Shown: in pieces, positions 85-35,308 of the stretch | Numbering within the stretch: the stretch's first letter is position 1 | Layout of the letters: each line of letters starts with the position of its first letter | Source: Octopus vulgaris | Lineage: Eukaryota | Length of the DNA: 64,000 nt | Reading direction: 5' to 3' | Assembly: GCA_951406725.2 (NCBI GenBank) | Contig: OX597838.1 | Span: 23,870,001-23,934,000 of the forward strand | Translations under genes and position numbers: made by a program | The notes under the pieces: model-generated | The model's database searches: none | What the model saw: the letters and a program-made list of their open reading frames with translations, nothing else | Told to the model about the DNA's origin: nothing

Positions 85-150
85 AATGATGTAGACACCT
101 CTGATGAGAACCCAATAAGGTTTGAAAATTGATTAAGGTTGTTCATCATT
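85..150 (+). ncRNA. Minimal type-I hammerhead ribozyme motif
   Basis: ACCT-CTGATGA-GAACC(caataa)GGTTT-GAAA-ATTGAT-TA-AGGT. Helix I ACCT/AGGT with distal AATGATG/CATCATT; near-palindromic helix III. Confidence 0.75.
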
Positions 151-5075: not shown

Positions 5076-6289
5076 TTTTTACCAAAGGCGTGGCTGTATG
5101 GTTAAAGAGATTGCTTCCTAACCACATGGCTCTGGGTTCAGTTCCACTGCATGTCACTTTGAGCAAGTGTGTTCTATTATAACCCCAGGCCAACCAAAGC
5201 CTTATGAGTGGATGTGGTAGATTAGTAAGGTAAGGTAAAGGTAAACTGATATGACACTGCATTGACACACAACCGCAGAAATTGTATTCACCTCAATAGA
5301 CGTCATTGATTGGTTGAAATTGCTGAAATGCAAGAAATTTAACAAGAAATAGTTTACAAAGTACAGAATTTTCTCACGAAAGCCAAGAGAGAAAGATGTT
5401 TTATGTAACACACTACCAGTATACGAAGTTTAAAAGTATTTAGTTAGAAAGAAATTATTTTAAAAATTTGCCGGTCAAAGTGAAAAGATCCAAAAATTGT
5501 TCAAATATTCTTTGGACAAACAAGGACAGACAAACGAATTAAGTCGATTACATTGACCCCAGTGCATAACTGGTACTTAATTTATCGACCCCAAAAGGAT
5601 GAAAGGCAAAGTTGACCTCGGCGGAATTTGAACTCATAACGTAACGGCAAACGAAATACGGCTACGCATTTCGCCCGGCATGCTAACGGTTCTGCCAGCT
5701 CGTATTATAGAAATATAACCAGTTTATTGCAAATAAATTTTAACAACAAAATCTTATGTGGACTCCCCACTATCACCACCATCAAGGGCCATATAGACCC
5801 AAGATGAGAGCCACTGTGTTAGATGGAAACTAAAAGAAGCCTTTAGCATATGTATAAGTATGTGTATGTGTGTGGGGGTTGTGCCGTCTCCTTGTCTTGA
5901 CATCGTGGGATAGTTGTAAATGAACATCACCGTCATACAAGCGGGGTAGTTTGTTTCAAAACCTTCTGTGGAAACATGTCCAGCCGTGGGGAAATATTTA
6001 CCTTGCTTGAAAACCATGAATGTTGGTGACTAGAAGGGCGTCCAGCTGTAGACAATCTGCCTCAACAAATTTTGTCCAAAGCATGGAAAAGTGGACATTC
6101 AATGATGATGATGATGATGGACACAAAGACAGAAATTTTGGCAGTGATGGTGGAAGGTGTACAGTTGATTATATCGACTGTAGTGCTTGATTGATACTTA
6201 ATTCTATTGTGAAAGATGAAAGTGGATGCTAAATACCACAAGGTATTTTCGTCCGACACTAACGACTCTGTTGTAATAATCCTGGTAAT

Positions 6290-8284: not shown

Positions 8285-8697
8285 ACTATTATTATTATTA
8301 TTGGCAGCAAGCTGGAAGAATTGTTAGCATGCTGAGCGAAATGCTTAGTGATATTTCGTCTGCCGTTACGTTCTGAGTTCAAATTCCACCAAGGCCGACT
8401 GTGCCTTTCATCCTTTCGGGGTCGATAAATTAAGTACCAGTTGAGGTTCTGGGGTCAATGTAATCGACTGTCCCCATCCCGCCAAATTTCAAGCCTTGTG
8501 CCTATAGTAGAAAGAAAGGATTATTATTGGTGGCGAGCTGGCAGAATCGTTAGCACACCAGGCAAAATGCTCAACAGCATTTCATCTGTCCTTACATTCT
8601 GAGTTCAAATTCTGTTGAGGTTAACTTTGCCTTTCATCCTCTCAGGGTCGATAAATTAAGGACCAGTCAAGTACTAGGGCTTGTGCCTATATTAGAA

Positions 8698-8729
<32 letters not shown>

Positions 8730-8970
8730 GGTGGCAAGCTGGCAGAATTGTTGGCATGCCAAGCAAAATACTTAGCCAAAATTGACTTTGCCTTTCATCC
8801 TTTCAGGGTCAATATATTAAGTACCAGTGGAACACTGGGGTTGATGTAGTTGACTATCACTCCCCCCCCAAATGTCAGGCCTTGTGCCTTTAGTAGAAAG
8901 GATTATTATTATTATTATTATTATCATTATTATTATTATCCGGCAAGCTGGCAGAATGGTCAGCATGCTG
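8285..8970 (+). mobile_element. Head-to-tail cluster of (ATT)n-tailed SINEs
   Basis: Three to four copies of GGC(A/G)AGCTGGCAGAA...GCCTTTCATCCTTTCGGGGTCGATAAA...CCTTGTGCC..TAGTAGAAAG separated by (ATT)n. Confidence 0.85.
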
Positions 8971-11578: not shown

Positions 11579-14236
11579 ATATATATATGTATATATAATG
11601 CAGCAAGTTGGCAGAATTGTTAGCATTCTGGGCAAAATGCTTAGCAGTATTCCGTCCATTATTATGTTCTGAGTTCAAATTCCACTGATGTTGACTATGC
11701 CTTTCATCCTTTTGGGGTTGATAAAATAAAGTACCATTTGAGCTCCAGGGTCATTGTAATCAACATACCCATTCTTCTGAAATTATTGACCCTGTATAAA
11801 AATTTGAAACCAATATATGTGTGTGTGTGTGTGTCAACATACATGCATGCACACTGCCGGCTTATACTCTGTTTCCACTTACCAAATTCTCTCAACAAGG
11901 CATTAATCATAATCAACTCAAGGCTATAGTAGAAGACACTTGTCCACTAGCCCAAGGTGCTGAGCAGAGGGACCGATCCCACAAAAACCATGTGGTTGCA
12001 TAGCATACCTGCTAACCAAACAGCCATGCTTGCATCTACAGACAATTTCCTTAAAATGGAAGCAAACACACGACATGGCCTTGTGTGTAATGGAAAAAGA
12101 AAAATCAATTTTTTTTACTCTTACAACTATTAACAATGACTTTTGGTAGTCTATTTCAATTAGTAGTAATTAAATTGGATTATTGGCAGTAATTGATAAT
12201 TAGTTTCAAGTAGCTTTAGTTAGTCGCTTGGTCAATTTTATAAAGACAGGCCATGTAGCTGAGTAGAGCTGATACTGCCCTACCCTCACCCCTATTCTAC
12301 AGCCTGACGCTTGTTCCACCCCATCTCCCGTCTCGTTTTATCAATCGACACTTCAAACGTCAAATTGCCTTTGCTGCAATTTGAAACCAGAAGGCTGAGA
12401 GGCCGAGAATTAGAAGATGCTGCTGCTGATGATGATAATGGTTTCTGATTTAGGTACCAGGCCAGCAATCTCGAGGGGAATGGCTTGGTCAATACCATTA
12501 ACCCCAGTACACAACTGGTACACCTATCTATTGTTATTTTTCTTTTCTTTTTACTTGTTTCAGTCATTGGATTTCGACCATGCTGGGGCACCGCCTTGAA
12601 GAATGTTAGTCAAACAAATCAACCTAGAACTATTTTTTCTAATTAAGCCTGGTACCTCTTCTATCAGTCTCTTTTTGCTGAACCACTAAGTTACAGGGAC
12701 ATAAACACACAAACACCGGTTGTCAAGCAGTGGGGGAGGGACAAGCACAAAGACACACACACATATATACATACATACACGATGAGCTTCTTTCAGTTTC
12801 TTTCTACCAAATCCATTCACAAGACTTTGGTTGACCTGAAGCTATGGTAGAAGACATTTGCCCAAGGTATTATGCCATGGGACTGAACCCAGTACCATGT
12901 GGTTAGGAAGCAATCTCCTTACCACAACTGGGTATTTATTTTGTCAAGCTTAAAGGATGAAGTGTAAAGTGGGGGTGGTAGGGCAAACATAGGCACAAAA
13001 ACACACACACACTGTAAGAGAATTTGGTAGTTAGAAACTCAAAGAAGCCTGCCATACATATGTATATAAGTATGTATATATGTGTGTTTGTGTGTGTGTG
13101 TGTTTGTCCCCTCCTTTACTACTGCTTGACAATAGGTGGTGTGTTTATGTCCCCGTAACTTAGTGGTTCAGCAAAAGACACCGCTAGAATAAGCACCAAA
13201 TTTACAAAAGAAAATGTACTGAGGTTTATTCATTTGACTAAAGAAAAACTTCTTCAAGGCGATGCCCCAGCATGGCCACAGTCCAAAGACTGAAGCAAGT
13301 AAAAGATAAAAGAGACACACACACATTCACTGGCCTGAAACTTGTTGAAGGTGCCCTGCAGTGGGACTGAACCCAGAACCATGTGGTTGGGAAACAAACT
13401 TCTTACCACACAGCCACTCCTGCATCTAGTTAACATACATTACACACACACACATTACAAATACACATTAAATACATTTACATACATACATACATAAATG
13501 TGTGTGTGTGAGAGAAAGAGAGATGGTCATGGTTGTGGTGTTGATCATCATCGTCATCATCATCATTTAACACCTAATGTCCATGCTGGCACAGGTTGGA
13601 CAATTTGACCAGGCTGTCATGTGGAAGACTTCTCCAGTCTGATTTGCCCTGGTTTTCTACAGTTGGATGCCCTTTCGTAATGCCAACCACTCTGAGAGTG
13701 TAATTAATGCTTTTTCATGCCACCGGCACTGGTGCCATTTGCATGACACCAGTATCTGCCATGACTGCGAGTTTGCTTGGCTTGGTGGTAGTATTTGTGG
13801 TTGTGGTTGTGGTGGCAATGAGGAGGGATTATGGTAGATTTGGTGGTGATTTTGATTGTTGTTATGATGATGTTGCTTTGTAAATGGCTGTGGTGGTAAA
13901 GTTTGTAAAGTGGTGGTGGTGGTGGTGATGGTGTAAGGAAGCAAACTTAAAGATTATATCCACAAACATCAAAAATGATGTTAGGAGTAGGTAGCTATGT
14001 GGTTGTTTGAACTGCTAGAAACAGCAGCCGGAAACATTTTGAACCACATCCTGAAGGCTGCATTGGGTAATGTAGTCTTAGGTACACTTATATTATAAAA
14101 AAAGTTCCTCATTGATCATAATCCGGTTCAGTCAGGGTTGACCTGGGATTAAACAACAACAACACCGACAATGGAATCCAGTGAGGCTTCTTGTAGTTGC
14201 TCAACCTGCAAGAAATAGTAACAAAATCTCACTTGA

Positions 14237-14757
14237 CCCTTTAGTGTTTAACCTGGCCATGTCCAGCTGAAATATTCTACAGGTTTTACATTCAAATTGG
14301 CTATATCTAGCCTCTTACACCTAACCTACATCGACATTTAAAAATAAACAATCACATCATTGAAACTTCAATGCTAATAAGATAATGCATGATTAATTCT
14401 AAACAATTTGAGTGAAAAAGCATTACATTTAACAGAGCCCACGGGCATATGGTGTAGTGGTTAAGAGCACAGGCTACTAACCCCAAGATTCCGAGTTTGA
14501 TTCCAAGCAGTGACCTTAATAATAATAATAATGATGATAATGATAATGATAGCATCAAAAATTACCTTTGGAATGAGAACCTAGGTTTGAAATTTCCCCA
14601 AGACACCTGATGAAGGCTAGAGGGTATATCAGCTGAAATGTGTTAACAACAAACACGATGAGGACAAATATCCGTCAGATGTAAATAATGTATATAATTC
14701 CTCATCTCTTAAATATAGAACTGTAGTATTTAACAGAGCGATCTGAACACTAAAGGG
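14237..14757. mobile_element. piggyBac-type MITE
   Basis: Perfect 12-bp TIR CCCTTTAGTGTT / AACACTAAAGGG, flanked by TTGA and TTAA. Confidence 0.85.
14439..14727 (+). mobile_element. tRNA-headed retroposon carrying a hammerhead motif
   Basis: A box TGGTGTAGTGG, B box GAGTTTGATTCC; GACAC-CTGATGA-A-GGCT..AGCT-GAAA-T-GTGTT at 14602-14644; 12-bp TSD ATTTAACAGAGC (14427-14438 / 14728-14739). Confidence 0.75.
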
Positions 14758-15647
14758 TTAAATCACACCCTATTGGTTAGAAACAAGGAGGAGCACATTG
14801 GACATTGTAGTCCTACATATACATTAAACCCCTTAGATGAGATGGTTATGTCTCAAATGCTCTTGGTCATAGGTCTGTTTGATTAAGGTTGACCTGGGGC
14901 TAAACAACACGACCACCACCAATAAGAACAACAACAACAGTGCCTACAACACCACCAACAACAACAACAGATTACTGTAGCTATCAATTGTCTGCCAGTC
15001 GACTTAATGCCATCCATTTATAGAAGTTATTAACTGAAGTAGTTCTATTAGCTACAACAGAAATGACTGTTACCATGGCGAAAGCTTGTTTTTTTTTTTT
15101 TTGTCTTTTTTCAAAAGACCTTAATGACGATGCCATCATCATCATCATCATCAACATCACTGTTTTAACAATCCACTTTCCACCTTCCTGGTGATCCTAC
15201 AAACATAATGCCAATAGGCTGTCCTTACTCTCCTACCCCGACATATATAACATCCCTGGTGATCCCGTATATGTAACAGTGTTGATATTTTTCAACTGTG
15301 ATAACAAACAACACTAACAAAATTATTAATTTCTTTGACTTTGGTCAATAAGTATTATTTCCTACGAGCTGACCACGTGCCATCAAAAATGACGGCTACT
15401 TGTAGTATTTTATATATAAATAAGGTTCATAATAATCACACATACAAACATTCACAAGCTTCCCTTGTACACGCACACACATATACTCACACAGAGTTGA
15501 AACACTGGCTTTTTCTTTTTCACCTCATCCTTCCTCTCATTGCTATTACTTTCTCTCACTTCCTCTCGGTCAGGGCTATTACTCTCACTACTTCTCCTTC
15601 ACTGAATTACTAATTACTCTCCTCCTCCGTGTCCGGCATGATTCTAG

Positions 15648-17114: not shown

Positions 17115-17677
17115 AGGCTTTCTGTCTACCAAATCCACTCACAAGGCTTTAGTAGAAGACACTTGTCCAAGGTACCACACAGTGGAACTGAACCCGGAAC
17201 CATGTGGTTGGAAAGCAAACTACTTATTACACAGCCATATATATGTGTAAGTATCACTGTTTGGTTAAGAAGCTCATTTTGCAACCATGTGGTTTTTGGT
17301 TCAGTTCTACTATGCAACACCTTGGGCAAGTGTTTTCTACTGTAGCCCCAGGCTGACCAATACTTTGTGAGTGAATTTGGTAGGCAGAAACTGTGTGGAA
17401 ACCTATTATATGTGAGTGTATACATACATACTCACACACACACACACACACTCTAATATGAGTATTCTCATCCTAAATGGAAACAAGTACCAGCACTTCC
17501 ACATGACACACTTAGATAATTGTGAAGATCTTTACACATAAAACCATTGGTTGGCATCTTAACACACAAATGAAGTGTATGCATATATGTGTGTGTGTCT
17601 GTGTATCAACATACATGCATTTGTGTGTGTATATATGTGTGTGTGTATGTATGTATACACACACACATATACATATA

Positions 17678-17708
<31 letters not shown>

Positions 17709-18306
17709 CTTTGTGTGTTTATATATATATATATATATCTTTGTGTGTGTCATTCTGTCTGTATTTGTCACATATACACATGCGCACTAACACATGATAA
17801 GTAGTGTTGGTCTGTTTAACTTAACAGTTCAAGGGAAGAAACCAACAGAATAAGTGTCAGACTTCAAGAAAAAAATATAAAAAACAAAAAACCCCAGAGA
17901 AAACACGGGATAGATTTGTTTCATTAAAACCCTTCAAGGCAGTACCCCAGCATGGCCGCAGTCCAATGACTGACAAAATATAAAAGTTGAAAATGTTAAA
18001 AATAAAAAAAAAACAAAAAACGAAATAAGAACAAAGGAAAGGAAAAAAATTTTTTTTTTTTTTTTTTTTTTAAATATAAGTCTGGCAATCTAAACAATGG
18101 CATTGAGATTTGGATGGAAATGGTAAACAGAGAACAGAAATAAGATTTCCGATGCTGAACAATGGAAATGTTTACCTAATTACAATCGAGATCAATATTG
18201 CTAAGCAAAGAAGAATATACGATGTAAACTATGTCAAACATGTTAAGGAATTTCTTTCTCGGACATTCTGAATGGCATAATCAATGTGAAAGAATAATAC
18301 GTGTGC

Positions 18307-18346
<40 letters not shown>

Positions 18347-18467
18347 GTGGATGTATGCATATGCAGGCAAACAGACAGGCACACACGTATAAACGTATGC
18401 ATATGCGAACATATGTATACATGTTTTTATGTATGCACACACACATATACATAATCATTATATACAA

Positions 18468-18502
<35 letters not shown>

Positions 18503-18629
18503 CACGCAAATACATATACACACATTGTATATATTTGTGTATATGTATATTTCTATGTATATAATGTGTAAGTATATGTATGTGTGCACATGAAATATAC
18601 ATATATATATATACATATGTGAGCGAACA

Positions 18630-18666
<37 letters not shown>

Positions 18667-20179
18667 GCACACATTATACAGACATATACATGGTTATATG
18701 CTTATATATACATATACCTGGTTATATACATACATTACACACATTATGAGTGTGTGTGTGTAAAAACAGCTAACATCCAACTTTTTATGGATGGATAGTT
18801 AGATTAAAAATTGCACAATTAACACAAGCAAAACATTACGAAGTTAAAAAGAGACAAGCAAACCAACAAAACCCATGTTCACAGAAAGCAGTTGCCTGGA
18901 AAAGCAGGGAAATACAAAGCAAAACTACAACAACCAAAGAAGTGTACAATGAAGATAAATATATCAAAGGAAGGAACAGAAAAGAATGTAATGTTTCAGG
19001 TGATATCTTTATCAAAGAGAAGAAAAAGGATTAAAAGAAGAAAGAGAAAAAGAAATAAAATACAATGCTTTTCTGAGCTAATACTGCTTCCAATACTAAT
19101 AAACTTTTAACTGGCCTGTTAGCTATTTTTAACACCAGTGATTTGTTAATCACTGTTTTTCTATATCAGTAGAGGCTAAATCTATCTAAGCATGCATTTG
19201 CTAATAGATACATGCTATTGACAATGCTCAAAGACACAGAAATGTATATTTAACAATTCTACTGCTATTGCTGATATACTTCTGTGCTTTTCAGCACTAT
19301 ATGTCTACGCATGATCTTTACTCAAAATGAATACTGCAATTGCTTGGCCTGGCCTTGCACAATACATCCACATTATCCCTTTAGTATTTCAATCGGCCAT
19401 ATCTGGTCAAAATATTCTCTGTTTTATGTTCAAACTGGCCAGGCCCTGGCTATCACACCTACCCTACAATGTCATACACACACATATATATATATACATA
19501 TATAAACATATATATACATACATATATACACACACATATATATATGTGTTCCTTTTTTACCCACAAGGGGCTAAACACAGAGGGGACAAACAAGGACAGA
19601 CAAACGAATTATGTCGATTAAATCGACCCCAGTGCGTAACTGGTACTTGATTTATCGACCCCGAAAGGATGAAAGGCAAAGTCGACCTCGGCGGAATTTG
19701 AACTCAGAACGTAGCGGCAGACGAAATACTGCTAAGCATTCCGCCCGGCGTGCTAACGTTTCTGCCAGCTCGCCGCATACATACATACACATATATGAAG
19801 ATACATATGTAGGCTACGATTGGTATTTCACCGGTGGTGCTTTGGCTGCTAGCGCACAACCTCTACATGATTTTACACAAATTTTCAATGTGACAGTCCA
19901 TTCTCAGCCAATGCACATAACTCCTCATTAAGGCTTTCATTCTCGACATTCCCATGTATCCACTGTGGAATCCCTGCAATACTCACTCTGTCATGCAGTT
20001 GGTACTACCACTCTGTGCATACATTAAAACACTGTTGCATCAGCAAAAATTATCCAAATTTGTGTTTTTTTTTATTTTGCTTATTTTGCAACATTTCTTT
20101 CATTCTTGTAATGTGATTATCCTCTGCAGATTTCAATTTTATATCATGCGCTGTCACTGGCAGTTTGTGAATAACATTA

Positions 20180-20575
20180 CGCAGGAGTGGCTGTGTGGTA
20201 AGTAGCTTGCTTACCAACCACATGGTTCCGGGTTCAGTCCCACTGCATGGCACCTTGGGCAAGTGTCTTCTACTATAGCCTCAGGCCGACCAAAGCCTTG
20301 TGAGTGGATTTGGTAGACGGAAACTGAAAGAAGCCCGTCGTGTATATGTGTGTGTGTGTATATGTTTGTGTGTGTGTTTGTCCCCCTAGCATTGCTTGAC
20401 AACCGATGCTGGTGTGTTTATGTCCCCGTCACTTAGCGGTTTGGCAAAAGAGACTGATAGAATAAGTACTGGGCTTACAAAGAATAAGTCCCGGGGTCGA
20501 GTTGCTCGATTAAAGGTGGTGCTCCAGCATGGCCGCAGTCAAACTGACTGAAACAAGTAAAAAGAGAAAGAGAAA
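20180..20575 (+). mobile_element. Full-length tRNA-derived CORE-like SINE nested in the Gypsy relic
   Basis: GCAGGAGTGGCTGTGTGGTAAG...GGTTCAGTCCC...ACCTTGGGCAAGTG; tail GGTGCTCCAGCATGGCCGCAGTC..TGAAACAAGTAAAA. Many other copies in the window (e.g. 12545-12930, 16845-17235). Confidence 0.85.
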
Positions 20576-22018
20576 GATAACGTTTTTAATTAATTTTTTT
20601 CTTCAATTCAGCTGCTGAGATCTCTTCACTGGTGGGGGAACCATTTAATTTTTTTACAGTACCAGCTTATTGGGAGATCCCAAAAATCAAATAACTCCAA
20701 CCAATCAGTAAACAAACAAATTGGTTGCTCTCTTTACAACAAAAAATTTCGCCTTGCAAGTTTTTCCTCAAACTGTGATATCATTCCACATTTTGCCTAC
20801 AAAGTGTAGTTTGTCACCTGTCATACCATGTGTAGTTTTCGCTGTTTTTCTTAACATAGGTCTCCCTATTTTCTTCCATGTGTTGGTGTTAATGATTGAA
20901 GTATCACTACCTGTATCCAGTTGTAATTTTATATTTACTCCATTTATTTTACAGGTACAAATTTCCTTATTTGGGAGTCAATTTTACTTTCTGCTGAGAG
21001 CACTTTGGAATTTTTAACATTTGACCCTTGTAGTTTTGTTCTGCAGTGTGAACTCTTGTGTCCAAATTTTTAACAGCTGTAACATTTTTGGTTTTTAAAA
21101 GGACAATCTTTTCTGAAATTCAGGCCTCCACATCCATAACATGGATTAGGACCTAGCAATCTTCTTTGGTTACACTTTCTTGGTCAACATATCAGTATTT
21201 TTGCAAAATCCGTTTTTTGAATTTTTTTTATATCATGTTTCAGGTTTACTATACTTTGATACTCTTCTGCAACAGTCTGCAAGTTTCAATCTTGGTCGTT
21301 GCTTCAAGTTTTGAAAGAATTCTTGCCCGTATTTCTGTATCTTCATTTGCTGTAAGGCCCTGTACAAAAACGAAGAGTTAAAACATCTCAGGGGTAAGTT
21401 CTTCAAGTTTAAAACTTTTACACATTCTGTTGACTGTTTCTGCATATATAATAAAGTCATCATCCTCTTTTTTATTAAATTCCAACACTCCATTCGAGTA
21501 TTAAAGAAAGAAGTTTTATCACCGAATATGTCAGATAGTAATTTGATTGTTTCCTGAAAAAAAATTTCACAAGACTTTTTGGGTAATATGAAACTACAGT
21601 GTTGTTCACACTCAGATGAAGCTAATTTATGTAATAATAACCTTACTTTTACTTCGTCTGACCATGTCTTACAATCTTCCTTAAAAATCTCCTTGTACCT
21701 TCTACATTGCAAAAGTTATACCCTCTTCTGGGGCATAACTGAATTCCATAATCGAGTTCAATATGCTGTCTGGTGAAAATGAACTTAACGCATTTACAGA
21801 CTTCCTTGCATAGAGTTCCAATAATTGTTGTTGTTTTAGTTGTTGCTGTTCTAGTTGCTTCTGCAAATCCTGTTGCTGTTCTTGTTGTTGTTTTTGCAAC
21901 TGTATTATAAAAGCTAATAGGTCTTCCATCATTTAACAAGTCGTATCACTAACAAATTGTTGAATAACCTACGTGAGCTTCAAAACCCTCATCGCCACAT
22001 GTATCCTCCGTCTCCAAA

Positions 22019-22285
22019 TGTCACGGTACTGCCACGATATTGTGATGGATGGTTTAGATACACTGTACCAGTGATGTAACAAGAAGCAAGATAATGAGGC
22101 AGCCATAATAACGATGTAATGATCCAACAACTAATATTCCCCAACGAACGAATCAGCCACAATCTTCCGACTTCACTGCGAACTCTGCTTGAACTAACAC
22201 ACATTTTCACTCTGACCACTACTATTTATAAACACTTAGTCCAGTCCAATTCTTGCAAGAGCGCATTGTGACTCACATCACAACA
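22019..22285 (-). repeat. 5' LTR of the Gypsy relic
   Basis: TG...CA termini on the minus strand, TATAAA inside, followed 2 nt later by a TGG-starting PBS-like motif. Confidence 0.7.
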
Positions 22286-22320
22286 ATATACATACATACA
22301 TATACATATATATATGTATG

Positions 22321-22351
<31 letters not shown>

Positions 22352-23150
22352 CATCATCATCATCATCATCATTTAACGTCCGCTTTCTATGCTAGCATGG
22401 GTTGGACGGTTCAACTGGGGTCTGGGGAGCCCGAAGGCTGCACCAGGCCAGTCAGATCTGGCAGTGTTTCTACAGCTGGATGCCCTTCCTAACGCCAACC
22501 ACTCCGAGAGTGTAGTGGGTGATTTTATGTGCCACCGACACAGGTGCCAGACGAGGCTGGCGAACGGCCACGCTCGGATGGTGTTTTTATGTGCCACCGA
22601 CACAGGTGCCAGACGAGGCTGGCGAACGGCTACGCTCGGATGGTGTTTTTATGTGCCACCGACACAGGTGCCAGACGAGGCTGACGAACGGCCACGATCG
22701 GATGGTGTTTCTTATGTGCCCACAGCACGGAGACCAGTCGATGCGGTACTGGCTACGGCCACGTTCGGATGGTTTTCTTGTGTGCCACCGGCACTGGTAC
22801 CACAAAGATACAAATTCCATTGATCTTCATCTATTTTGATTTGATTTGATTTGATTTTCACTTGCCTCAACAGGTCTTCACAAGTGTCACAAGAAGGAAG
22901 GAAGGTATGCACAGGTGAACTGACAACGTCCCAGGTAGGGGCCACGGGTTATGGCCTGACTAGTCTTGCCGGGTCTTCGGATGATGTTTTTATGTGTCTC
23001 CGACACAGGTGCCAGATGGATGGTGTTTGTTACGTGCCCACAGCACGGAGGCCAGTCGATGCGGTACTGGCTACGGCCACGTTCGGATGGTTTTCTTGTG
23101 TGCCACCGGCACTGGTACCACAAAGATACAAATTCCATTGATGTTCATCT
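22352..23150 (-). mobile_element. (GAT)n-tailed SINE family member with internal 62-bp tandem units
   Basis: GCCACC recurs at 22531, 22593, 22655; minus-strand tail TTGGCGTTAGGAAGGGCATCCAGCTGTAGAAAC...GGACGTTAAA(TGA)n shared with copies at 7665-7940, 24160-24325 and 37960-38275. Confidence 0.8.
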
Positions 23151-23253
23151 ATATATATATATAGAGTTAATCCAAACATGAAAACACAACAACGCGAGGA
23201 TGTGGAACAAATATAGTATTATTGGAGGCTCAGGAAGGAAGGGAAGAAGGAGG

Positions 23254-23288
23254 GTTTTACGTTTCGAGCAAAGCTCTTCATCAGAAAC
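23254..23288 (-). ncRNA. Ultra-minimal type-I hammerhead ribozyme motif
   Basis: Minus strand GTTT-CTGATGA-A-GAGC(ttt)GCTC-GAAA-CG-TA-AAAC: intact core, helix I GTTT/AAAC, palindromic ACGT helix III; lies in a ~190-bp island flanked by (TA)n. Confidence 0.85.
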
Positions 23289-23368
23289 ATAGGAAAAGGA
23301 AAGATTCAGAGAAGAGAAGACGGAGGAAAAAAGACTTGCCAACGGTACAGTCACATTATATATATATA

Positions 23369-23407
<39 letters not shown>

Positions 23408-23429
23408 GTGCATATATATATATATATAC

Positions 23430-23474
<45 letters not shown>

Positions 23475-23535
23475 TATATACGTGCATATATATATACATG
23501 CATACATATATATATATATATATATATACATGCAT

Positions 23536-23566
<31 letters not shown>

Positions 23567-23975
23567 CATACATATATATATATATATATATATACATGCA
23601 TACATATATATATATATATATATATATGTATGCACGTATATATATATATATATATATAAATATATATATGTATTTATACATATATATAAATATATATATG
23701 TATACATATATATATATATATAAATACAGTATTATGAAAATTGGCTACATTTTCATTAATTTCATTAGGCATTGAAAAAGTTTGGTGAGATGCCATCTGA
23801 GGAAAACTGCCCTGGTGAAAAACTTGAAGTAATGAAAAAGAATCCCATTTGAACAATAACACAATAAGATATATTTTCCTCTCCAAGCCATAAGTCATCT
23901 TCATTTTGTTTGTACAACTACTTGGAAAAATAATGTTTTCCTCCCTTTCTCTTTAAATACATATACATATACATA

Positions 23976-24006
<31 letters not shown>

Positions 24007-24547
24007 ATATATATATATATGTATATATATATGTATATATGTATATATATATGTACATATATGTACATATATGTATATATATATACATATATATATATAT
24101 ATACATATATATATACATATATATGTATACATATATATATGTATACATATATATGTCATCATCATCATCGTTTAACGTCCGTTTTCCGCGCTAGCACGGG
24201 TTGGACGGTTTGACCGGGGTCTGGGAAGCCAGAGGCCACTCCAGGCTCCAGTCTGATCTGGCAGAGTTTCTACGGCTGGATGCCCTTCCTAACGCCAACC
24301 ACTCCGCGAGTGGAGTGGGTGCTTTTTATATATATATATACATATATATATGTATATATATGTATACATATATATGTATACATATATATATGTATATATA
24401 TATATATGTATACATATATATGTATACATATATATGTATACATATATATATATACATATATATATGTATATATATGTATACATATATATGTATACATATA
24501 TATATATATATACATATGTATATATATGTATACATATATATGTATAC

Positions 24548-24579
<32 letters not shown>

Positions 24580-24888
24580 GTATATATATATGTATACATA
24601 TATATGTATACATATATATATATATACATATATATATGTATGTATATATATGTATACATATATATATATGTATATATATATATATACACACACATATGTA
24701 TACATATGTATAAAAACATGCATATATACGTATTCATGCATGTATAATTATATATATATATGTGTGTGTGTATGTGTGCATACATATACACACACACACA
24801 TATGCACTCATATATATATATATATATATATACCTACATATACACATGTACTTAAATATACCTACACACACATATATACACATATGTG

Positions 24889-24919
<31 letters not shown>

Positions 24920-24923
<4 letters not shown>

Positions 24924-25180
24924 AGTCTCTCAGGGTTTTTGAAAGGATATTGAAGAGCTGTGGTCACTTGAAACCCATGTTGTTGCAGTATCTGGTTCTG
25001 TATCCTGTTGGCAATGTTGGGATTTTTGGTACTATGCAGTGCCACCTCATTCTACTGTTTGTGTAACTTTGAATGCCAAAGTTTGGCATAAGATGTTCTA
25101 GGATTTTCCAGATATATATCACAGTATATCTTTGCTGCCTTCATTCTACGTATAGCAGCTTGACTTTATCTGACCTCTCG
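24920..25180 (-). pseudogene. CR1/L2-group LINE ORF2 C-terminal fragment
   Basis: RQQRYTVIYIWKILEHLMPNFGI...[22 protein letters not shown] resembles the RR.RY..IY.WKI...FN.LP..LR tail of CR1-group RTs. Confidence 0.7.
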
Positions 25181-27775
25181 GTAGCTGACATGTCGCATTG
25201 AAACAAAGAACTTGAAATAGTAATGGACGAAAGCCTCACCTTTGAACATCATTACCATTCTTATCATTTTAATGTTCGTCTTATCATGCTTTGATGGATC
25301 AGGCAGAATTCAGTGAAGCAGATTTCCTATAGCCAGATGTACATCCAGATGCCAACTGTGACCTGTTTCCAAGTGAGGTAATATCTTCTCACGTACAAGA
25401 GATTGAAAATGAATGCCTTTGCTTGTATCACCAACATCATCGTTGTCATCATAATCATTTAATGCCTGTGCCTTGTGCTGGCATTGTTTGAAAGGATTTG
25501 ATGTGTCAAAGGACTGCTTTATTTCTCCACTGTCCACATTTCATTGCTGGAGACCCTTCCTAATGACAAACTTTACAACATGGATTAGGTGCTTTTTATG
25601 TGCCACCTGTACTGTTGTGGTTGCCATAGTGGTCATCCCTCTCATATGTATATGATACAATTTATTGAACTTTCAGATTTTAATATACTAGATCACTGGT
25701 GTTAAATTGATATTAATTAAATTAATATCCAATTTCTCACCCTCATTTTAAATTTATGCATGTGTAGCCTCGTCTGGCACGTAAAAAGCACCCACTACAC
25801 TCACAGAGTGGTTGGCGTTAGGAAGGGCATCCAGCTGTAGAAACATTGCCAGATCAGACTGGGCCTGGTGCAGCCCCAGTTGAACCGTTGAACCCATGCT
25901 AGCATGGAAAGCGGATGCTAAACGATAGATAGATAGATATATATATTTTCATTCTAGCTGAGTAGCTCATTGCTGCCAGGCAATTTTCATGATTGAAAGC
26001 CTTTATTTCATTTTTTTTTTTTGTTTCATGTCAGACCATGTCTTCTCCAATGGATAGGTCTCTTGATCAGGACAGATTTCTACAGTATTTGAAACAATTT
26101 ATAGTGTCTTGATATACAAAGTTTCTGTCAGTCCATTCGGTGTAGAGATGTAAAGGATTTTTCTTTGCTCGCTGCTGATGCTTTGTGAGGGTCCTTCAGC
26201 TCTGTTGCCCTAATAAAATTCCTTACACACATGCATACACACAAAAACACACATACATTCACAGACAGACAGACAGATAGATAAAAATAGATAATGATAG
26301 ATAGATAGATAGATAGACAGATAGACAGACAGATAGATAGACAGACAGATAGATAGATTAAGATAGATAGATTAAGATAGATAGGTAGATAGATAGATGG
26401 ATAGATAGATAGATGGATAGATAGATAGATGGATAGATAGACAGATAGATGGATTAGATAGACAGACAAACACATACATACATAGACAGGTAGACAGATT
26501 TACCTCCTTAAAGGAAACTATATCTCCATTGCAACACTTTTCCATTTTCCCATAGTAGGTTTAAGAATGGGTTCAAAAACAGGAAAGACAGCGAAAACAT
26601 TCAAAATAGAAGCCAAAAGACAAGGTACCAGGTTTCACAAAGTGCAATGAAATGTCTCTTGAATCTTCTTGATATAACTTCTATAAATACCTGCTTCCAC
26701 ACTTAGTTGAAATTCCACAAACAGGTAGGTTTATAAATAGCTATTGAAAGATGATCAAGAACTTTTCCATTTAAGAATTCTAAGTAGTCGATAAACCCTG
26801 CCAAGCACCTATTAATAAAGTAAATGGAATCTGAACTGGATAAGTCTTTTCTATATGTGGTATCTACTGTCTTTGAATTGGATTTCATGAGTCAAAGATA
26901 GGTAGACAGATGGATATAAAGATAGAGAGAGATAGGTGGATGAACTGATAGATAGATAGATACATACATACATACATTCATACATACATGGACAGACAGA
27001 AATAGATAGACAGATAGATAGATACATACATACATACATACATACATACATACACGGACAGATAGAAATAGAAGAAATAGATAGACAGATAGATAGATGG
27101 ACAGACAGAAATAGATAGACAAACAGAAATAGACAGACAGACAGACAGATAGATAGATAGATGGATTGATAGATAGATAGATAGATTGACAGACAGACAG
27201 ATAGATAGATTGATAGACAGATAGATTGGTAGATGATAGGTAGATAGATATATAGAGAGGGAGAGAGACAGACAGACAGAAAGATAGATACAAAGAAAAA
27301 TAGATAGCTAGACAGGCAGATATACAGAGATATTGATATAGAGAGACAGAGATTGATATATAGAATTTTTTTCTTGTTTTTGTTAGCAAAGTTAGATTGA
27401 GTGGATCTCAGGTATCGACTGATGTGAGGGTGGAGGGAGGGAAAAAATTTTGCAGTTACGTATTCACAACATAATTTCTTTAATTCAGAGGACAGTTTAA
27501 CCTTCCACTTCACCATTTACTATGTTAAGTAGCGGCAACATCGAAGAAAAGATTAACTAACAGGATTAGCTATATATCTCCATAAATACACACACTAATA
27601 CATGCGTATCACTATATCTAACTGCAGTTAGTCTTGGTCATCTTACAATTTTAATCAAACTTCGCATCACATTTGTATGGCTGTGTGGTTAAGAAGCTTG
27701 ATTTGCATCTACGTGGTTTCAGATTCAGTCCCATTGTGCAGTACCTTCAACACGTTTTCTATTATAGGCCCAGGC

Positions 27776-28008
27776 AAGGCGGCGAGCTGGCAGAGACGTT
27801 AGTGCACCGGGCGAAATGCTTAGCAGTATTCCGTCTGCCGTTACATTCTGAGTTCAAATTCCACCGAGGTCGACTTTACCTTTCATCCTTTCGGGGTCGA
27901 TAAATAAAGTACCAGTTACGCACTGGGGTCGATGTAATCGACTTAATCCCTTTGTCTGTCTTTGTTTGTCCCCTCTATGTTTAGCCCCTTGTGGTCAATA
28001 AAGAAATA
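27776..28008 (+). mobile_element. SINE with Tx1-like tail and 16-bp TSD, nested in a CORE-like SINE
   Basis: TSD TATTATAGGCCCAGGC at 27760-27775 and 28009-28024. Confidence 0.9.
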
Positions 28009-28180
28009 TATTATAGGCCCAGGCTATGGTATTTTGTTAGTGAATTTGATATATGGAAACTGTGTGGAAGCCTGTTGCATGCATATCATATTAAAGGAAA
28101 AATCAAAACCAAGGCAAAATGAATATCTCAAGACATTTAGAATAGTTTAATGAGGGTAAGGTGAATTTGATAGATATATA

Positions 28181-28566
28181 CAGGGTGCGATGGGTAAATT
28201 GTTGCCATTTTATATTTTTAATTCCACCTAACATCTGGCCAGACTGCAATCTCCTTGATTATTATGTGTGGGGCGCAGTTGAGCGAGAGACCAACAAAAC
28301 TCCTTGTAACACCAAAGATGAACTGAAAGCAAGGATTATGGCAGCATTCACCAAATTATCAAGGAGATCGTCCAGAAGAGTTGCAGGAGATTCTGAAGTC
28401 GTTTGGAGGCCGTAGTTGAAGCCAATGGTGATTTTACTGAATAAATTTACTCTTTAGTATTTCAAGATATTTTTATGCAGTTTTGGTAAATATATCTGTT
28501 AAAATGAGATGTCAGTGTTATTTTCATTTTTGTGTAATTTAGACAGCAATTTATTCACTGCATCCC
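28181..28566 (+). mobile_element. Internally deleted Tc1/mariner-superfamily element
   Basis: TA|CAGGGTGCG..GGTAAATTGTTG left TIR, GACAGCAATTTATTCACTGCATCCC right TIR; PDCNLLDYYVWGAVERETNKTP..DELKARI transposase C-terminus. Confidence 0.85.
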
Positions 28567-28630
28567 CACCCCCAAAATTGCTACCCTTGTGGAAAAATTT
28601 GAAACCATTATTATTATTATCACCATTATC

Positions 28631-28708
<78 letters not shown>

Positions 28709-28931
28709 ATAATCATTAAGGTAGTGAGTTGGCAAAATCGTTAGCACACTGGATGAAATGTGTAGTGGTATTTCACCTGCCGCTATGTTCTGAGTTCAAA
28801 TTCCGCCAAGGTTGACTTTGCCTTTCATCCTTTCGGGGTCAATAAAGTAAGTACCAGTTGAACACTGGGGTCAATGTCATCGACTAGCCCCCTTCCCCAA
28901 AATTGCCGTCCTTGTGGAAAAATTCGAAACA

Positions 28932-28968
<37 letters not shown>

Positions 28969-29067
28969 GCATCATCATTATTGTTATTACTATTATTATT
29001 ATTATTATTATTATTAGCATCATCATTATTGTTATTATTATTATTATTATTATTAGCATCATCATTA

Positions 29068-29103
<36 letters not shown>

Positions 29104-29224
29104 GCATCATTATTATTATTATTATTATTATTAGCATCATCATTATTATTATTATTATTATTAGCATCATCATCATTATTATTATTATTATTAGCATCAT
29201 CATCATCATTATTATTATTATTAT

Positions 29225-29782
29225 TGAGTGAGAGAGCAGTGCATGCCATCAAAGTGGCACTGGGATAAAATATACGAAGCCCAGTATACCCATCATTACT
29301 ACTCGTCTGATAAGGGTACACCAGGCACATGCATCATAACCATATGTGCACGACATGGTGATCTGATATCAAGATTAAACAGTGCATGACCTTACAGGGA
29401 AGGCCTAGTTAGAATTTTCTTCAGGTTGCTTAGCCCATCCCGCACAAAAGGTCCCTGAATAAGGATTGTTTAAGGATGTTGAAGGAAGCACCCATGTTTC
29501 CAGAGGTGAATTATCCAAGCCTCACAGAATTCCTCTCAACACATGGTTATGATGCTCCCCAACTACTTCTGCTCGTGATCAGAGATGCACATATCGTCAG
29601 CCACTAAGGGACATGCTCAACTGGTTAAGGTCAAACAACTGACAAGCAAATCTGTGGTATTGAGCAGAATATTTGCTGTAGCCTGTCTTTCATACCAAGA
29701 CAAAACAATGTACATGATAACACTTCCAATCAGTTAAGATCAGAAGCCACGAGAGCCACTGCTTGGTACTGCATCAGGGCAT
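29225..29782 (-). mobile_element. ~560-bp non-coding interspersed element bounded by (TAA)n on both sides
   Basis: Partial copies at 3597-3730, 15900-16070 and 63925-64000. Confidence 0.75.
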
Positions 29783-30297
29783 TATTATTATTATTATTAT
29801 GGTAATGAATTGGTAGGATTGCTTTGAGGTTATTTGTCCTGAATTTTTATGCTCTATGTTCAAATCCCACTGGGGTCAACTTTGCCTTTCATCCATTCAT
29901 GATCAATAAAACAGAGAATCAGTCAAAGAGTGGAATCACTGAAATTGCTTAAGAATCTCCCCCATCAAAAGTGTTGGCCTCATGCCAAAATTGACATTAT
30001 TATCATTGATTCTTGCTTTGAAAGACATATTTTTTATTTACATTGTGATCCGTGGATTAAATTACGTTTGAGCTTTGCAAAAATTGTGTATTACTGTTTA
30101 TCTAATTACATAAAATCATTGTTCGAGAAGGTGAGGGTTGCAATGGCTCTGTGGTTAAGAAGTTTGTTTCGGAACCGTGTGGCTTCAGGTTCAGTTCCAC
30201 TCCAATGTGTGGCACTTTGGGCAAGTGTCCTTCTCTAAGTCAACCATTGCATTGAGTGTATTGACTGATGGGCAGAAACTATAAGAAGCCCATGAAA

Positions 30298-30695
30298 TCT
30301 TTATATATAAAAGAGAGGTTGTGTGCTGCCTGTCTCCTACGATTTAGATTCCTAACTACTCCCACATTTTGCGGTGCAGTTTAACCAAAACCGGGTATCT
30401 TATAGTCGTGATTCATATCGAGCCCTTCTGGGTATTAGCGCGTGTCTACAATAAGTCTCCGATTAAAAAAAAAATTTACCATCAATTTTCCCCATTTTTA
30501 ATGCATTTTTGGCATATATAAGGGAAGTAATTCTCTAAAAATTTATTATTAAATCTCAGAACGTAAAAAGCTACAGTAACACCCCCTCGCTTTGTGGTTA
30601 GCCATATTGAGATGGCTATTATACTTTACATCTCTAAAAATGCTTATATAGTTATTTCCCTTACAAACCCGAGCAACGCCGGGCGATACTGCTAG
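30298..30695 (+). mobile_element. Non-autonomous Helitron
   Basis: A|TC 5' end, subterminal hairpin CCCGAGCAACGCCGGG (30668-30683), CTAG|T 3' end, no TSD. Confidence 0.85.
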
Positions 30696-32141
30696 TATAT
30701 ATATATATTCTTTTACTTGTTTCAGTCATTTGACTGCAGCCATGCTGGAGCACCAGCTTGAGGAGTATTAATCGAACAAATTGACCCCAGGACTTATTCA
30801 CATTGGTGTTGGTACTGGTGTCGTGTAAAAAAAATACAATCGATGGTGCCACTGAAAAACACCTAGTACACTCTGTGGAGTGGCTGGCATTAGGAAGGGC
30901 ATCCAGCTGTAGAAATAAAGCCAAAGCAGACTATGGGACCTGGTGTGGCCCCCTGGCCTTACCAGTTCCTGTCAAGCCACCCAACCCATCTCAATTTAGA
31001 AAACGAACGTTAAATGGTGACAATGTGCATATGTGTGTGTCTGTCTTCCCCTTTTCTTGATAATTGCTCAGTGGTTACAAACAAAGTCACCAGTGAAAGA
31101 AATGGTGTCATTTGTTTCATATCTTGGGTAAAAACACGGTCAGCCATTGAGTTTAATCCTTCTTTGAAGAACTGGGGGAAATGTTACCTATTTGTATTAC
31201 CTCACCTTCAAAACAGGTTTAGGGTCGGTGACAGAAAGAGCATCCAGTTGTTGAAAACTGGTCCACAAAACTTTTCTCTAGTGTATGGAAGCCTTGACAA
31301 GTGGACATTCAAACAGTGTTTTGTTAAGGTTATTTCTACAGATATTCTATATAAATTATGGCCAGCTCTTGTTTTTGCTACAACACCGATTCAAACAGTG
31401 GTGGTGGTGATGATGATGTATGGAAGCAAAAAAAAAATAACATTTGGAAATTTATTTTGATATTCCACATTCATTTCAGAACGTCAACCAATTTCCACAG
31501 AAAACCAACAAACTGTAAACTTTGAATGACAGAAATGAATGTATGTGTGCGCGCATATACATACTTACATACTTATACACAAACACACACATATACATAC
31601 ATATATCAATTTAATACACAACCGAAAGAGCCACCAAGTTTCATGCTTCTATGATACCCTTAACTAGGCATATTTATAAATATGTATCTCCATGTATCTC
31701 CAAGTATCTCCAAGCAATCTTTCAGGCTTTGTTTACGCATTACATATTGTATAAATATGTCTATTTAAAGTATCACAAAAGTATGAAACTATCAGTAGTT
31801 CTTTTCAGTTTATTTTATTTTTTTTATCTAGTTTCAGCTCACAAGCTGTGGCCATGCTGGGGCACCGCCATTTGTTGTGTATTAAATTGATATTTATCTC
31901 TCATTGGATGGGGCACATTGTTTTTTTTTTTGTTGATTCTACTTATATTGGATTTATAAACTACACACACACACACACACACATTTAAACATACATCATC
32001 ATCATCATCATCGTTTTTACACAGAAACCAACAAACTATATACTCTGAATGATAAAAATGACTGTTTGTGTGCGCATATACATACATATATACTTATACA
32101 CAAACACACATATATACATACATATATCAATTTAATACACA

Positions 32142-32213
32142 ACATCGGTAGTATAGTGGTAAGGATCCCCGCCTGTCACGTGGGAGACTGGGGTTCGATT
32201 CCCCACTGAGGAG
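32142..32213 (+). pseudogene. tRNA-Asp(GTC) retrocopy fused to a SINE/LINE-type tail
   Basis: TAGTATAGTGGTAAGGATCCCCGCCTGTCACGTGGGAGACTGGGGTTCGATTCCCC is close to metazoan tRNA-Asp; anticodon GTC at 32175-32177; acceptor stem mismatched. Confidence 0.85.
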
Positions 32214-32670
32214 ACATTTTTACTTAACGGCGGTGCATCAGCATGGCCACAGCTCTGAGCTGAAACTAGAGAAAAAAAACAAACCGAAAGAACTACTATT
32301 AGTTTCATGCTCCTATGATACCTTAACTAGGCTTATTTATAAAATATGCCACATATCTCCAAGCAATCTTTCAGGCTCTGTTTATGCATTACACATTTTA
32401 CATACCATCATCAAGTGGAGGCGCGTGGCTTAGTGGTTAGGGTGTCAGCATCATGATCGTAAGATTGTGGTTTCGATTCCTGGACTGGGCAACGCGTTGT
32501 GTTCTTGAGCAAAGCACTTCATTTCATGTTACTCCAGTCCACTCAGCTGGCAAAAATGAGTAACGCTGTGATGGACTGGTGTCCTGTCCAGCTGGGGAAC
32601 ACATATGCCATTGAAACCGGGAAACCGGGCCCACGAGCCTGGCTAGGCTTTAAAAGAGGGCACATTTATT

Positions 32671-32836
32671 GTGGAGGCACATGGCCTAGTGGTTAGAGCA
32701 GCGAGTTCGCAGTTGAGGGATCGCGGGTTCGAATCTCAGACCGGGCGATGTGTGTGTTTATGAGCAAAACACCTAAGCTCAACGTGGCTCCAGCAGAAGG
32801 TAATGGCGAACTTCTGCTGACTCTTTCGCCACAACT
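32671..32836 (+). mobile_element. 5' half of a tRNA-derived SINE
   Basis: A/B boxes; colinear with the 9662-9958 copy up to CCACAACT, then ends. Confidence 0.85.
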
Positions 32837-33204
32837 GGTAACGGCTCAAAGAGCCATGGAAAGGTCAATGCTTGGTATCTCGTTGAGAGAACACATGAGT
32901 AGCGAGATCATCAGAAAGAAGTACGGCGTGAGAGATGTCATCGCAGAGTATACACGCAGCAAGTTTAGATGGGCTGCACACGTCGCCCGACTCACCGATA
33001 ATTGGTGGATCCGTGCAGTTGTCGAGTGGTACCCGCGCGAGCGGAAACGACCACCCGGAAGGCCTCCACGACGGTGAAGTTACGATTTCAGGAAGACGAT
33101 TGGGATCACATGGATGACAAAGGCGTGATCCAGAGAGGAGTGGATAGCGTGCTGTGACCAGCGGTGTCAAATGGACGCCCGACGGACTGGTCGGTCAAGG
33201 TGAT
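32832..33204 (+). pseudogene. RTE-clade LINE 3' fragment
   Basis: QRAMERSMLGISLREH...SKFRWAAHVARLTDNWW..VVEWYPRERKRPPGRPPRR, the typical RTE C-terminus. Confidence 0.9.
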
Positions 33205-33526
33205 ATATATATATAGATATATATTAAACTATGGTTGCAGAACAAACAAATATAAGGTCATCCACGTAACATTTCATATTTCGAACATTTAATCACATAA
33301 TGATTTTTCTTTCACATAGAATATACATGCATAAAATCACAGAAGATGAAACACAACCCATCAATACAAGCATATAAGAAAAATGTGTGAATACAGTCCA
33401 TCGCGATTAAAAGTTGATGGTTAATACTTTAGCGGTCCTATTAAACATTTAGCGATCTTATTAAACATTTTGTTCCTGATAAGAAACAATCACTTTATTA
33501 TTGATATTTATATATATATACATATG

Positions 33527-33577
<51 letters not shown>

Positions 33578-33590
33578 TATACATGTACAT

Positions 33591-33984
33591 CAGCAATGTG
33601 CCACCTAGGTAGGCTTGGTAGGCAGTGCCTACCTTGAATAAAATAGATGGAAAGCAACATTTTCCATTTACAGCAAAACATGGACCTAATTTAATAAAAT
33701 TATGAAGGTTACTCTGATTACTATGCATAAAATGCAAAATATTTTATTTTTTTTGTAGATTAGGTAGGCATAATGTACCCCTGTTTTTCAATGTCAGTAT
33801 TTAAGCTATACATAGTACTGCTGCATACACTCCTAAAACACCATTTTCTTTACGTGCTATAAAGGCTGAAATATATCTGCTTTCAACTCAGTCGTATGCC
33901 CATGTTTCACTTATTTTTTGTGCATTTTACTACATAAAGGTTACCAACTGCCAACCCTGAGTAATTACTGATGGCACGTGCCTG
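33591..33984. mobile_element. hAT-type MITE
   Basis: Imperfect TIRs CAGCAATGTGCCA / TGGCACGTGCCTG; 8-bp TSD ATGTACAT / ATGTATAT. Confidence 0.7.
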
Positions 33985-33991
33985 ATGTATA

Positions 33992-34024
<33 letters not shown>

Positions 34025-34050
34025 TTGTAATATGTGACAATTATTCAGTA

Positions 34051-34120
34051 GCCATAATAAAACTCTGAGTTCCGAATGTCAGGGTGGAAATCCACACCAC
34101 CATCTCTTCAGTTATACGGC
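34051..34120 (-). ncRNA. Type-I hammerhead motif, degenerate (GGAA for GAAA)
   Basis: Minus strand GCCGTATAA-CTGAAGA-GATG...CATTC-GGAA-CTCAGAG-TT-TTATTATGGC; helix I GCCGTATAA/TTATTATGGC. Confidence 0.6.
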
Positions 34121-34177
34121 CATCGGAAAAAATGCTATGAAAATATATATATAAATATTTAAATCATAAATATTTAA

Positions 34178-34245
34178 ATCACCTGAAGAATGACTGTAAC
34201 TCGAAATTTTAAGAATTGGACAGCCATGAAACGATCGTAGTGTTA
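34178..34245 (+). ncRNA. Minimal type-I hammerhead ribozyme motif
   Basis: CAC-CTGAAGA-ATGACTGT...ACAGCCAT-GAAA-CGATCG-TA-GTG; palindromic helix III. Confidence 0.8.
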
Positions 34246-34454
34246 TACTAATTATCTTTTTTTAATAATTTTGATATATATTTAAAATAATATAAATTAA
34301 TTAATCTTATGTATTGGCTTAAGTTTTTCATTGTATGATTTGCCTAATAGTGGTTTTATCTCTAATTTAATATAATATAATATTTTACTATAAAATTGGA
34401 TTCAATCCTAAATCTGATTTTTCCCTGTAAGTTTGGATTTATTCCCTAATATTT

Positions 34455-34489
<35 letters not shown>

Positions 34490-35080: not shown

Positions 35081-35104
35081 AAATAGATAACAGATGGATT
35101 GTAA

Positions 35105-35191: not shown

Positions 35192-35308
35192 TACAATTAA
35201 GAAATAAACATTTCATTTTCAACTCTCTGAATGAATTTGGGTTGGTAGAGTCAAATGGCACAATACACTTGTTCTTAAGATGTTCAAAATATTTAATTCT
35301 TATCTGTA

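Follow-up and report, generated by a model that had tools for sequence, protein, structure and literature searches.

What kind of retroposon carries a tRNA-type promoter and a hammerhead ribozyme in one short unit, and which enzymes move it? The question is raised by a 289-nt insert in the window analysed here, a 64,000-nt stretch of Octopus vulgaris DNA. Our preferred reading (probability about 0.6) is that the insert, though decayed, represents a full-length member of a high-copy octopus retroposon family, putatively transcribed by Pol III and inserted by the RT and endonuclease of an autonomous Penelope-type element (PLE).

The insert lies inside a MITE, which we take to be piggyBac-like from its TTAA/CCC termini, and is flanked by a 12-bp target-site duplication (TSD) with the sequence ATTTAACAGAGC:

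14233..14761, no strand assigned: host MITE of about 220 bp with TTAA/TTGA ends and CCC..GGG TIRs, split by the retroposon (inverted arms and read depth)
14427..14438, plus strand: left TSD, its last 2 nt being the first 2 nt of the family (12-mer repeat; 5′ loose ends)
14728..14739, plus strand: right TSD, beginning with ATT (12-mer repeat)

The arms of the host MITE (14233–14248 and 14746–14761) are 94% complementary. A 12-mer repeat at the spacing of the TSD occurs at one other site among 34,085 window positions, tandem repeats excluded. Loose 5′ ends of the family cluster at 14437 in runs X24, X1 and X11; with the family 5′ end at this position, the 12-bp TSD described in the original prediction is present but should be refined to 10–12 bp, 2 nt of its left copy overlapping the element start. 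The main family 3′ end lies at about 14725 in placed reads and contigs and, as predicted, lacks poly(A). Joints leading from 14435 directly to 14741 omit the whole insert in all three DNA runs (X1, X11 and X2; 3, 2 and 2 contigs, respectively) and represent further copies of the host MITE without it; both MITE flanks stand at high depth in the four runs placed on 14330–14830. Since a single TSD surrounds head and body and the empty host MITE lacks both, the two parts were inserted here together. No second copy of the head or the body is found within the 64-kb window. A second, partial copy of a piggyBac-like MITE (70% identity) is located at 19377–19468.

Words of the body, whole or in part, are present in 22 of the 24 runs listed (13 studies, six organism labels), and 17,383–34,984 contigs are placed per DNA run, host-MITE reads included. 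The element is short, TSD-flanked and dispersed, with heterogeneous flanks at both ends and a known empty site. The retroposon family of the original prediction is supported. The A and B boxes, the (AAT)n linker and two hammerhead scaffolds of the original prediction all lie where it had placed them. The 5′ part consists of two features:

14437..14517, plus strand: tRNA-derived head, with A box at 14450–14460 and B box at 14494–14504 (pattern scan, family reads)
14518..14550, plus strand: (AAT/GAT)n linker (sequence)

The two boxes are 33 nt apart and the A box begins 13 nt from the family 5′ end, within the 30–35 nt and 10–15 nt, respectively, expected of tRNA-derived SINEs; the A/B consensus follows PMC8969392. 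The combined pattern occurs twice in the window (in this element and at 8275, minus strand) and in none of 200 shuffles. The invariant C of the B box is T at 14498 in this copy, and C in 1354 of 1541 X24 reads. Rfam yields no match of the head to tRNA at the gathering threshold or at E-values up to 10, and ARAGORN detects no tRNA in the head of this copy or in the family-majority head at four thresholds, including relaxed ones. The head is a tRNA relic: it bears the promoter, and its acceptor stem is broken. The linker may once have been the 3′ tail in a simple SINE; alternatively, it may have served as landing site for a PLE. The lack of TTTT on the sense strand was rejected as evidence and is not significant, as 32% of shuffles and 24% of window stretches equally lack it.

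Another SINE-like family in the window likewise terminates in CTT(AAT)n. This repeat of about 250–280 bp is abundant (43080–46640, 5514–5702, 8287–8970, 19539–19796, 27776–28011, 38323–38577 and 60301–60603), and at 43–46.6 kb it forms a nested or tandem cluster whose copies are apparently inserted into one another's tails. At 32142–32213 (plus strand) lies a gene or pseudogene resembling tRNA-Asp(GTC), with mismatches in its acceptor stem.

Downstream of the linker lie the two hammerhead scaffolds:

14570..14597, plus strand: first scaffold, with helix II and GAAA and no CUGA box or cut site; a non-catalytic hammerhead relic that includes the ATG at 14573 (family reads)
14602..14644, plus strand: second scaffold, a minimal type I hammerhead of the PLE kind, dead in this copy (family reads)

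The second scaffold comprises helix I (14602–14606/14640–14644), the core (14607–14613) and GAAA (14635–14638). In this copy 3 nt are missing after 14638, and changes at 14619 and 14634 damage helix II. It is not recognized by a type I hammerhead descriptor, which matches two other motifs in the window (0.03 in shuffles), and Rfam finds no ribozyme on the element at the gathering threshold or at E-values up to 10. The copy is dead and lacks the helix III and cleavage nucleotides, just as suggested from its sequence. Its head, scaffolds and body do not fold better than shuffles.

The family reads restore what this copy has lost. Behind 14638, at a depth of 3242, X24 reads insert CGT in 669 cases and TGT in 531; 37% of reads are thus gapped with 3 nt at this point (21% CGT, 16% TGT), the remainder being clipped or without them. 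The CG form is the consensus of clipped reads and contigs in all four runs. At the closing pair of helix II, X24 has G at 14619 in 3248 of 3302 reads and C at 14634 in 2307 of 3178. The resulting family core consists of a 5-bp helix I, CUGAUGA, an extra A, a helix II of 5–6 bp closed by G-C, GAAA, a CG palindrome and a U-U site. It was proposed that a consensus might restore GAAA-CG-TH; the family reads give GAAA-CG-U-H (H = U), and helix II as well. The family hammerhead would be cut after 14639, and GUU is a weak cleavage triplet. The accessible text of PMC4209133 names four marks of PLE minimal hammerheads, namely an extra base between 9 and 10.1, G10.1-C11.1, palindromic 15.2–16.2 and a 5-bp helix I, and describes these ribozymes as cleaving weakly and acting as dimers. 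All four marks are found in the family reads and not in this copy. Among the best 40 of 148 change rows, this copy diverges from the family by at least about 5%, and 6 of the 13 majority differences listed are of the CpG type. The copy has been inactivated by ordinary CpG decay together with the 3-nt deletion.

The first scaffold does not amount to a ribozyme. The best 40 of 148 rows contain no family change at 14570–14572 or beyond 14592; there it has G-A-A where C3-U4-G5 is expected, and it contains no N-U-H site. Lacking both CUGA box and cut site even in these family rows, it cannot partner the second scaffold, and the dimer in cis envisaged in the original prediction is not supported. The first scaffold and the intact hammerhead at 97–139 share a two-block motif (two matches in the window, none in 100 shuffles), hinting that the first scaffold may be a relic of a second pseudo-LTR (pLTR) hammerhead.

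Several other hammerheads are scattered over the window. The one at 97–139 (plus strand), of type I, is near-intact, with one CpG-type change, and its helix III contains a palindromic insert of 6 nt. At 23288–23254 (minus strand) lies a perfect PLE-type minimal hammerhead with an extra A, a CG palindrome and a UA site, within what resembles a solo pLTR of another family. The inverted hammerhead pair at 35081–35208 (minus) and 35291–35416 (plus) is 83% alike; helix II is very long, helix III is an 8-nt palindrome, and the layout is that of the inverted pLTRs typical of PLEs. A decayed CUGAUGA..GAAA motif at 49228–49252 (plus) is perhaps another pLTR relic.

The 3′ module carries the following further features:

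14573..14725, plus strand: frame beginning with an ATG that, in the family majority, has no stop over 52 codons and reaches the 3′ end (reads, P0001)
14657..14706, plus strand: 3′ stem-loop across the proximal end, a candidate RT start or recognition signal (arms 14657–14671 and 14692–14706)
14692..14725, plus strand: optional 3′ extension of 27–33 nt, similar to the PLE "tail" (loose ends)

The family's loose 3′ ends, with mixed flanks, fall into two classes, 33 nt apart in reads and 27 nt in contigs. The distal class at 14725 (1283 X24 reads; 317, 313 and 238 contigs) is the larger and stops with neither poly(A) nor a repeat. The proximal class is found at 14691/14692 (700 and 610 X24 reads, the 700-read pile behind 14691 being possibly dominated by one locus) and at 14698 (170 contigs in X1, 200 in X11), where the contig consensus continues in the 9-nt repeat unit GTAAATAAT. 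Two such classes are also compatible with subfamilies or a tandem tail. An optional tail of 30–40 bp, ascribed to two internal RT starts, is called unique to PLEs in the available part of PMC11167929. The family 3′ ends lie 53 and 86 nt beyond the predicted cut site; in the PAc PLE, the one RT start given in the same part of that source is at +111–118 and the cut is at +26, a distance of 85–92 nt that matches the 86 nt of the distal end. The stem-loop at 14657–14706 is weak alone (z = −1.66; 13 of 200 shuffles fold equally well).

The ATG-led frame contains three stops in this copy, all removed by family letters, and matches P0001 at 46 of 51 residues. A frame of this kind is open by chance with a probability of 0.024 in one frame and 0.072 in any of three, and its openness is therefore support, not proof. 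It probably represents the truncated beginning of a PLE ORF. A natural open frame of this copy has three protein matches among 1.84 billion representatives. The closest, P0001 (UniRef A0A0L8FV75, Octopus bimaculoides; 85% identical), most likely represents a copy of a repeat that has received a gene annotation. P0002 contains three tandem 43-aa units resembling the element body, that is, a translated 129-nt tandem repeat, and is a probable retrozyme or pLTR array in another genome. Pfam gives nothing above its cut-off on P0001–P0003, an atlas comparison of P0001 and P0002 yields scores of 0.82 or less and no lead, and P0001 is not found in viral contigs. Two natural open frames used as queries in word-index protein searches match nothing, and pattern scans of metagenome, genome and viral contig collections give 0 matches.

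Penelope-type mobilisation, raised in the original prediction, is the best reading and is favoured by the two end classes and the PLE-type core. We consider it somewhat more probable than otherwise that the family is a tRNA-headed SINE with a PLE pLTR-ORF junction as its 3′ module, moved by PLE enzymes, and it is likely that these rather than the usual LINE enzymes copy it. The target begins with ATT and the ATG frame crosses the hammerhead and leaves through the 3′ end; the accessible part of PMC11167929 likewise describes nicking with a preference for ATT, an ORF that starts at the hammerhead and uncleaved RNA as the template of PLE RT. PLEs occupy 6.83% of the O. vulgaris genome, according to the available portion of the supplement to PMC13282606. 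An autonomous PLE with the same 3′ end did not emerge from protein searches (three short spurious frames) or from microbial and viral collections.

The family could also be a tRNA SINE mobilised by a LINE, its mid-body an old PLE pLTR fragment with the hammerhead as cargo and its 3′ end read by a LINE RT (RTE, CR1/L2 or other); we regard this as unlikely. The short end class runs into a 9-nt repeat, a continuation that resembles the tandem tails of LINEs, and a 3′ stem-loop is a LINE recognition feature too. The clean 10–12 bp TSD and the full-length head are, moreover, ordinary marks of SINEs (PMC8969392), and LINEs account for 12.9% of O. vulgaris. However, the larger end class at 14725 has neither poly(A) nor a repeat, the classes are spaced by 27–33 nt, the stretch from the ATG through the hammerhead to the end looks like one PLE module, and the 3′ tail matches neither the LINE of the window nor any other window sequence. 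That decayed LINE (56421–60346, minus strand) has an RT frame (Pfam RVT_1, 57264–58370) and a zinc-knuckle ORF1 piece upstream. A frame with Pfam DUF7083 at 21233–21715 (minus strand) is probably a gag-like retrotransposon fragment.

The tRNA head and the ribozyme part are linked in other copies as well, as several joints show. Among the 15 joints listed (151 more exist), four connect head and body on the same strand: 14468→14602, 14468→14688, 14470→14598 and 14497→14584. The last is seen in two runs from two organisms, and a further head-body joint, 14494→14590, appears in a separate table of the same read placement. Three of the 15 listed joints connect the 5′ end to an inverted body (1–2 contigs each), and the only tail-to-head joint listed, 14692→14437, reaches a depth of 248 in X1 (1–2 contigs). 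By analogy, the opposite-strand and tail-to-head joints recall the inversions and partial tandems of PLEs described in the available part of PMC8557442. In the four runs, head depth amounts to about 0.3–0.6 of body depth; truncation at the 5′ end or edge effects could explain this, and so could free PLE ends.

The last option would suit repeated nesting, in which a separate tRNA SINE received 5′-truncated PLE ends in its (AAT)n tails, making the locus a composite or a rare co-mobilised chimera. PLE endonuclease cuts ATT (PMC11167929) and some PLEs favour microsatellites (PMC8557442), as stated in the accessible parts of these sources; body depth exceeds head depth, and linker-crossing sequences are few (33–38 reads per strand in X24, 0 contigs). 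Yet the read placement omits the linker (14508–14558), and the low depth there arises because it skips the repeat. A single TSD surrounds head and body, the empty host lacks both, several distinct head-body joints and the tail-to-head joint exist, and the outer ends of head and body are sharp and common to runs of three organisms. We find nesting improbable as an account of the family.

Very improbable is an Sm-alpha or retrozyme cycle, in which Pol III would transcribe tandem arrays and a dimeric, essential hammerhead would cut the product to unit RNAs or circles for RT: it accords with the tail-to-head joint 14692→14437 (depth 248 in X1), the conserved family core, the tandem relative P0002 and the Sm-alpha model (available text of PMC6765202), but cleaved units would begin at 14640 with the promoter downstream, whereas the family ends at the tRNA head and at 14692–14725 and the order of parts in this copy is that of an uncleaved transcript. 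Retrozymes are recognized by tandem units each with a complete hammerhead; here a single copy is present in the window and the first scaffold is non-catalytic. The term retrozyme hybrid, applied to the locus at first, was accordingly an overstatement, as it is a TSD-flanked monomer with no tandem array.

Transcript data do not bear on cleavage. In RNA run X24, 11,594 reads were placed from 12.9 million records, host MITE included; the strands are equally represented, 83% of reads run into unlike sequence and no pile-up of starts or ends is listed. This is the pattern expected of copies embedded in longer transcripts; it gives no hint of a discrete Pol III RNA or of cleavage, nor does it argue against them.

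Returning to mobilisation by PLE enzymes, we envisage the following course. A tRNA SINE would have acquired a PLE pLTR-ORF junction, fused downstream of its (AAT)n tail, and Pol III would transcribe through the element, whose sense strand has no TTTT, into the flank. The PLE protein would then bind the 3′ module, nick AT-rich DNA and prime cDNA inside the RNA at either of two sites. The two RT starts may account for the short (14692–14698) and long (14725) copies, of which only the long ones would contain the whole 3′ stem-loop. As the predicted cut site is downstream of the promoter and upstream of the RT start, cleavage would destroy the full-length template, and full-length copies would derive from uncleaved RNA. 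Activity of the hammerhead would require a dimer formed in trans or the assistance of a protein. As a component of the PLE recognition module it is probably carried along as a passenger; alternatively, it could serve as a brake. More tentatively, we speculate on a SINE class partnered by PLEs, defined by a Pol III promoter, a captured pLTR-ORF junction, internal RT starts that would divide the copies into short ones that are dead and long ones that are competent, and a hammerhead acting as a dimer- or protein-gated switch that would destroy the template when its RNA is abundant.

The closest architectural parallels are the Schistosoma elements Sm-alpha and Sj-alpha (PMC6765202, PMC2770079), which, in the accessible text, likewise combine a tRNA-derived Pol III promoter with a downstream type I hammerhead and reach very high copy numbers. 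As described there, Sm-alpha is tandem and cutting of its multimers yields monomers whose 3′ end carries the promoter, whereas the octopus element is a dispersed monomer with TSD; in contrast to Sm-alpha in those accounts, it has a core of the minimal PLE type, a probable ORF stub and two kinds of 3′ end reminiscent of the PLE tail. The likeness noted here is one of architecture. With PLE pLTRs, as presented in the available parts of PMC4209133 and PMC11167929, it shares the four hammerhead marks, a putative ORF start at the ribozyme, possibly the optional 30–40 nt tail, and the AT-rich target. It differs from the PLEs of these texts in having no RT/EN ORF and in its sharp 5′ end, set by the fixed tRNA head; copies of PLEs are truncated there to varying extents. 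Metazoan non-LTR retrozymes are likewise non-coding, have a type I hammerhead and are proposed to be non-autonomous PLE derivatives (PMC7761336; bioRxiv 10.64898/2026.07.22.740005, accessible portions). Those portions present retrozymes as tandem units and name no internal promoter, in contrast to the TSD-flanked monomer with its own predicted Pol III promoter. Non-autonomous PLEs of Chlamys such as MRC1 (available part of PMC8557442) are also non-coding, have 3′ ends in common with PLEs and are likely PLE-moved; in that part no tRNA head is mentioned for them, and they form pLTRs and head-to-tail arrays.

Like tRNA-derived SINEs, the element has A and B boxes 33 nt apart near its 5′ end, a length of 289 nt, a TSD and a dispersed distribution, and is abundant in Octopus. 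It departs from them in having no poly(A) or identified LINE tail and in bearing a hammerhead in its 3′ module. Three octopus SINEs, OR1, OR2 and OK, were reportedly described by Ohshima and Okada in 1994, and the family may equal one of them. OR2 is classed as a CORE SINE in the accessible text of PMC4758252. A family so abundant is very likely present in Dfam or Repbase under some label. A hammerhead SINE is not mentioned in the available text of PMC13282606 (with supplement), PMC8967140 or PMC4758252, and in the literature open without subscription we found neither an octopus hammerhead SINE nor a tRNA-headed PLE-dependent SINE described.

SINEs are defined as passengers of LINEs (PMC8969392). 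If our reading is true, the telomerase-like RTs of PLEs would also drive promoter-bearing SINEs, which would suggest a partner for Sm-alpha-type elements. The 290-nt predicted Pol III template would offer a compact substrate for PLE insertion assays, and thousands of natural copies would map PLE RT starts, TSD lengths and selection on the hammerhead. For the octopus genome, in which 893 of 900 recently active SINE families are unclassified according to the accessible part of PMC13282606, it would reclassify part of this large unclassified SINE fraction.
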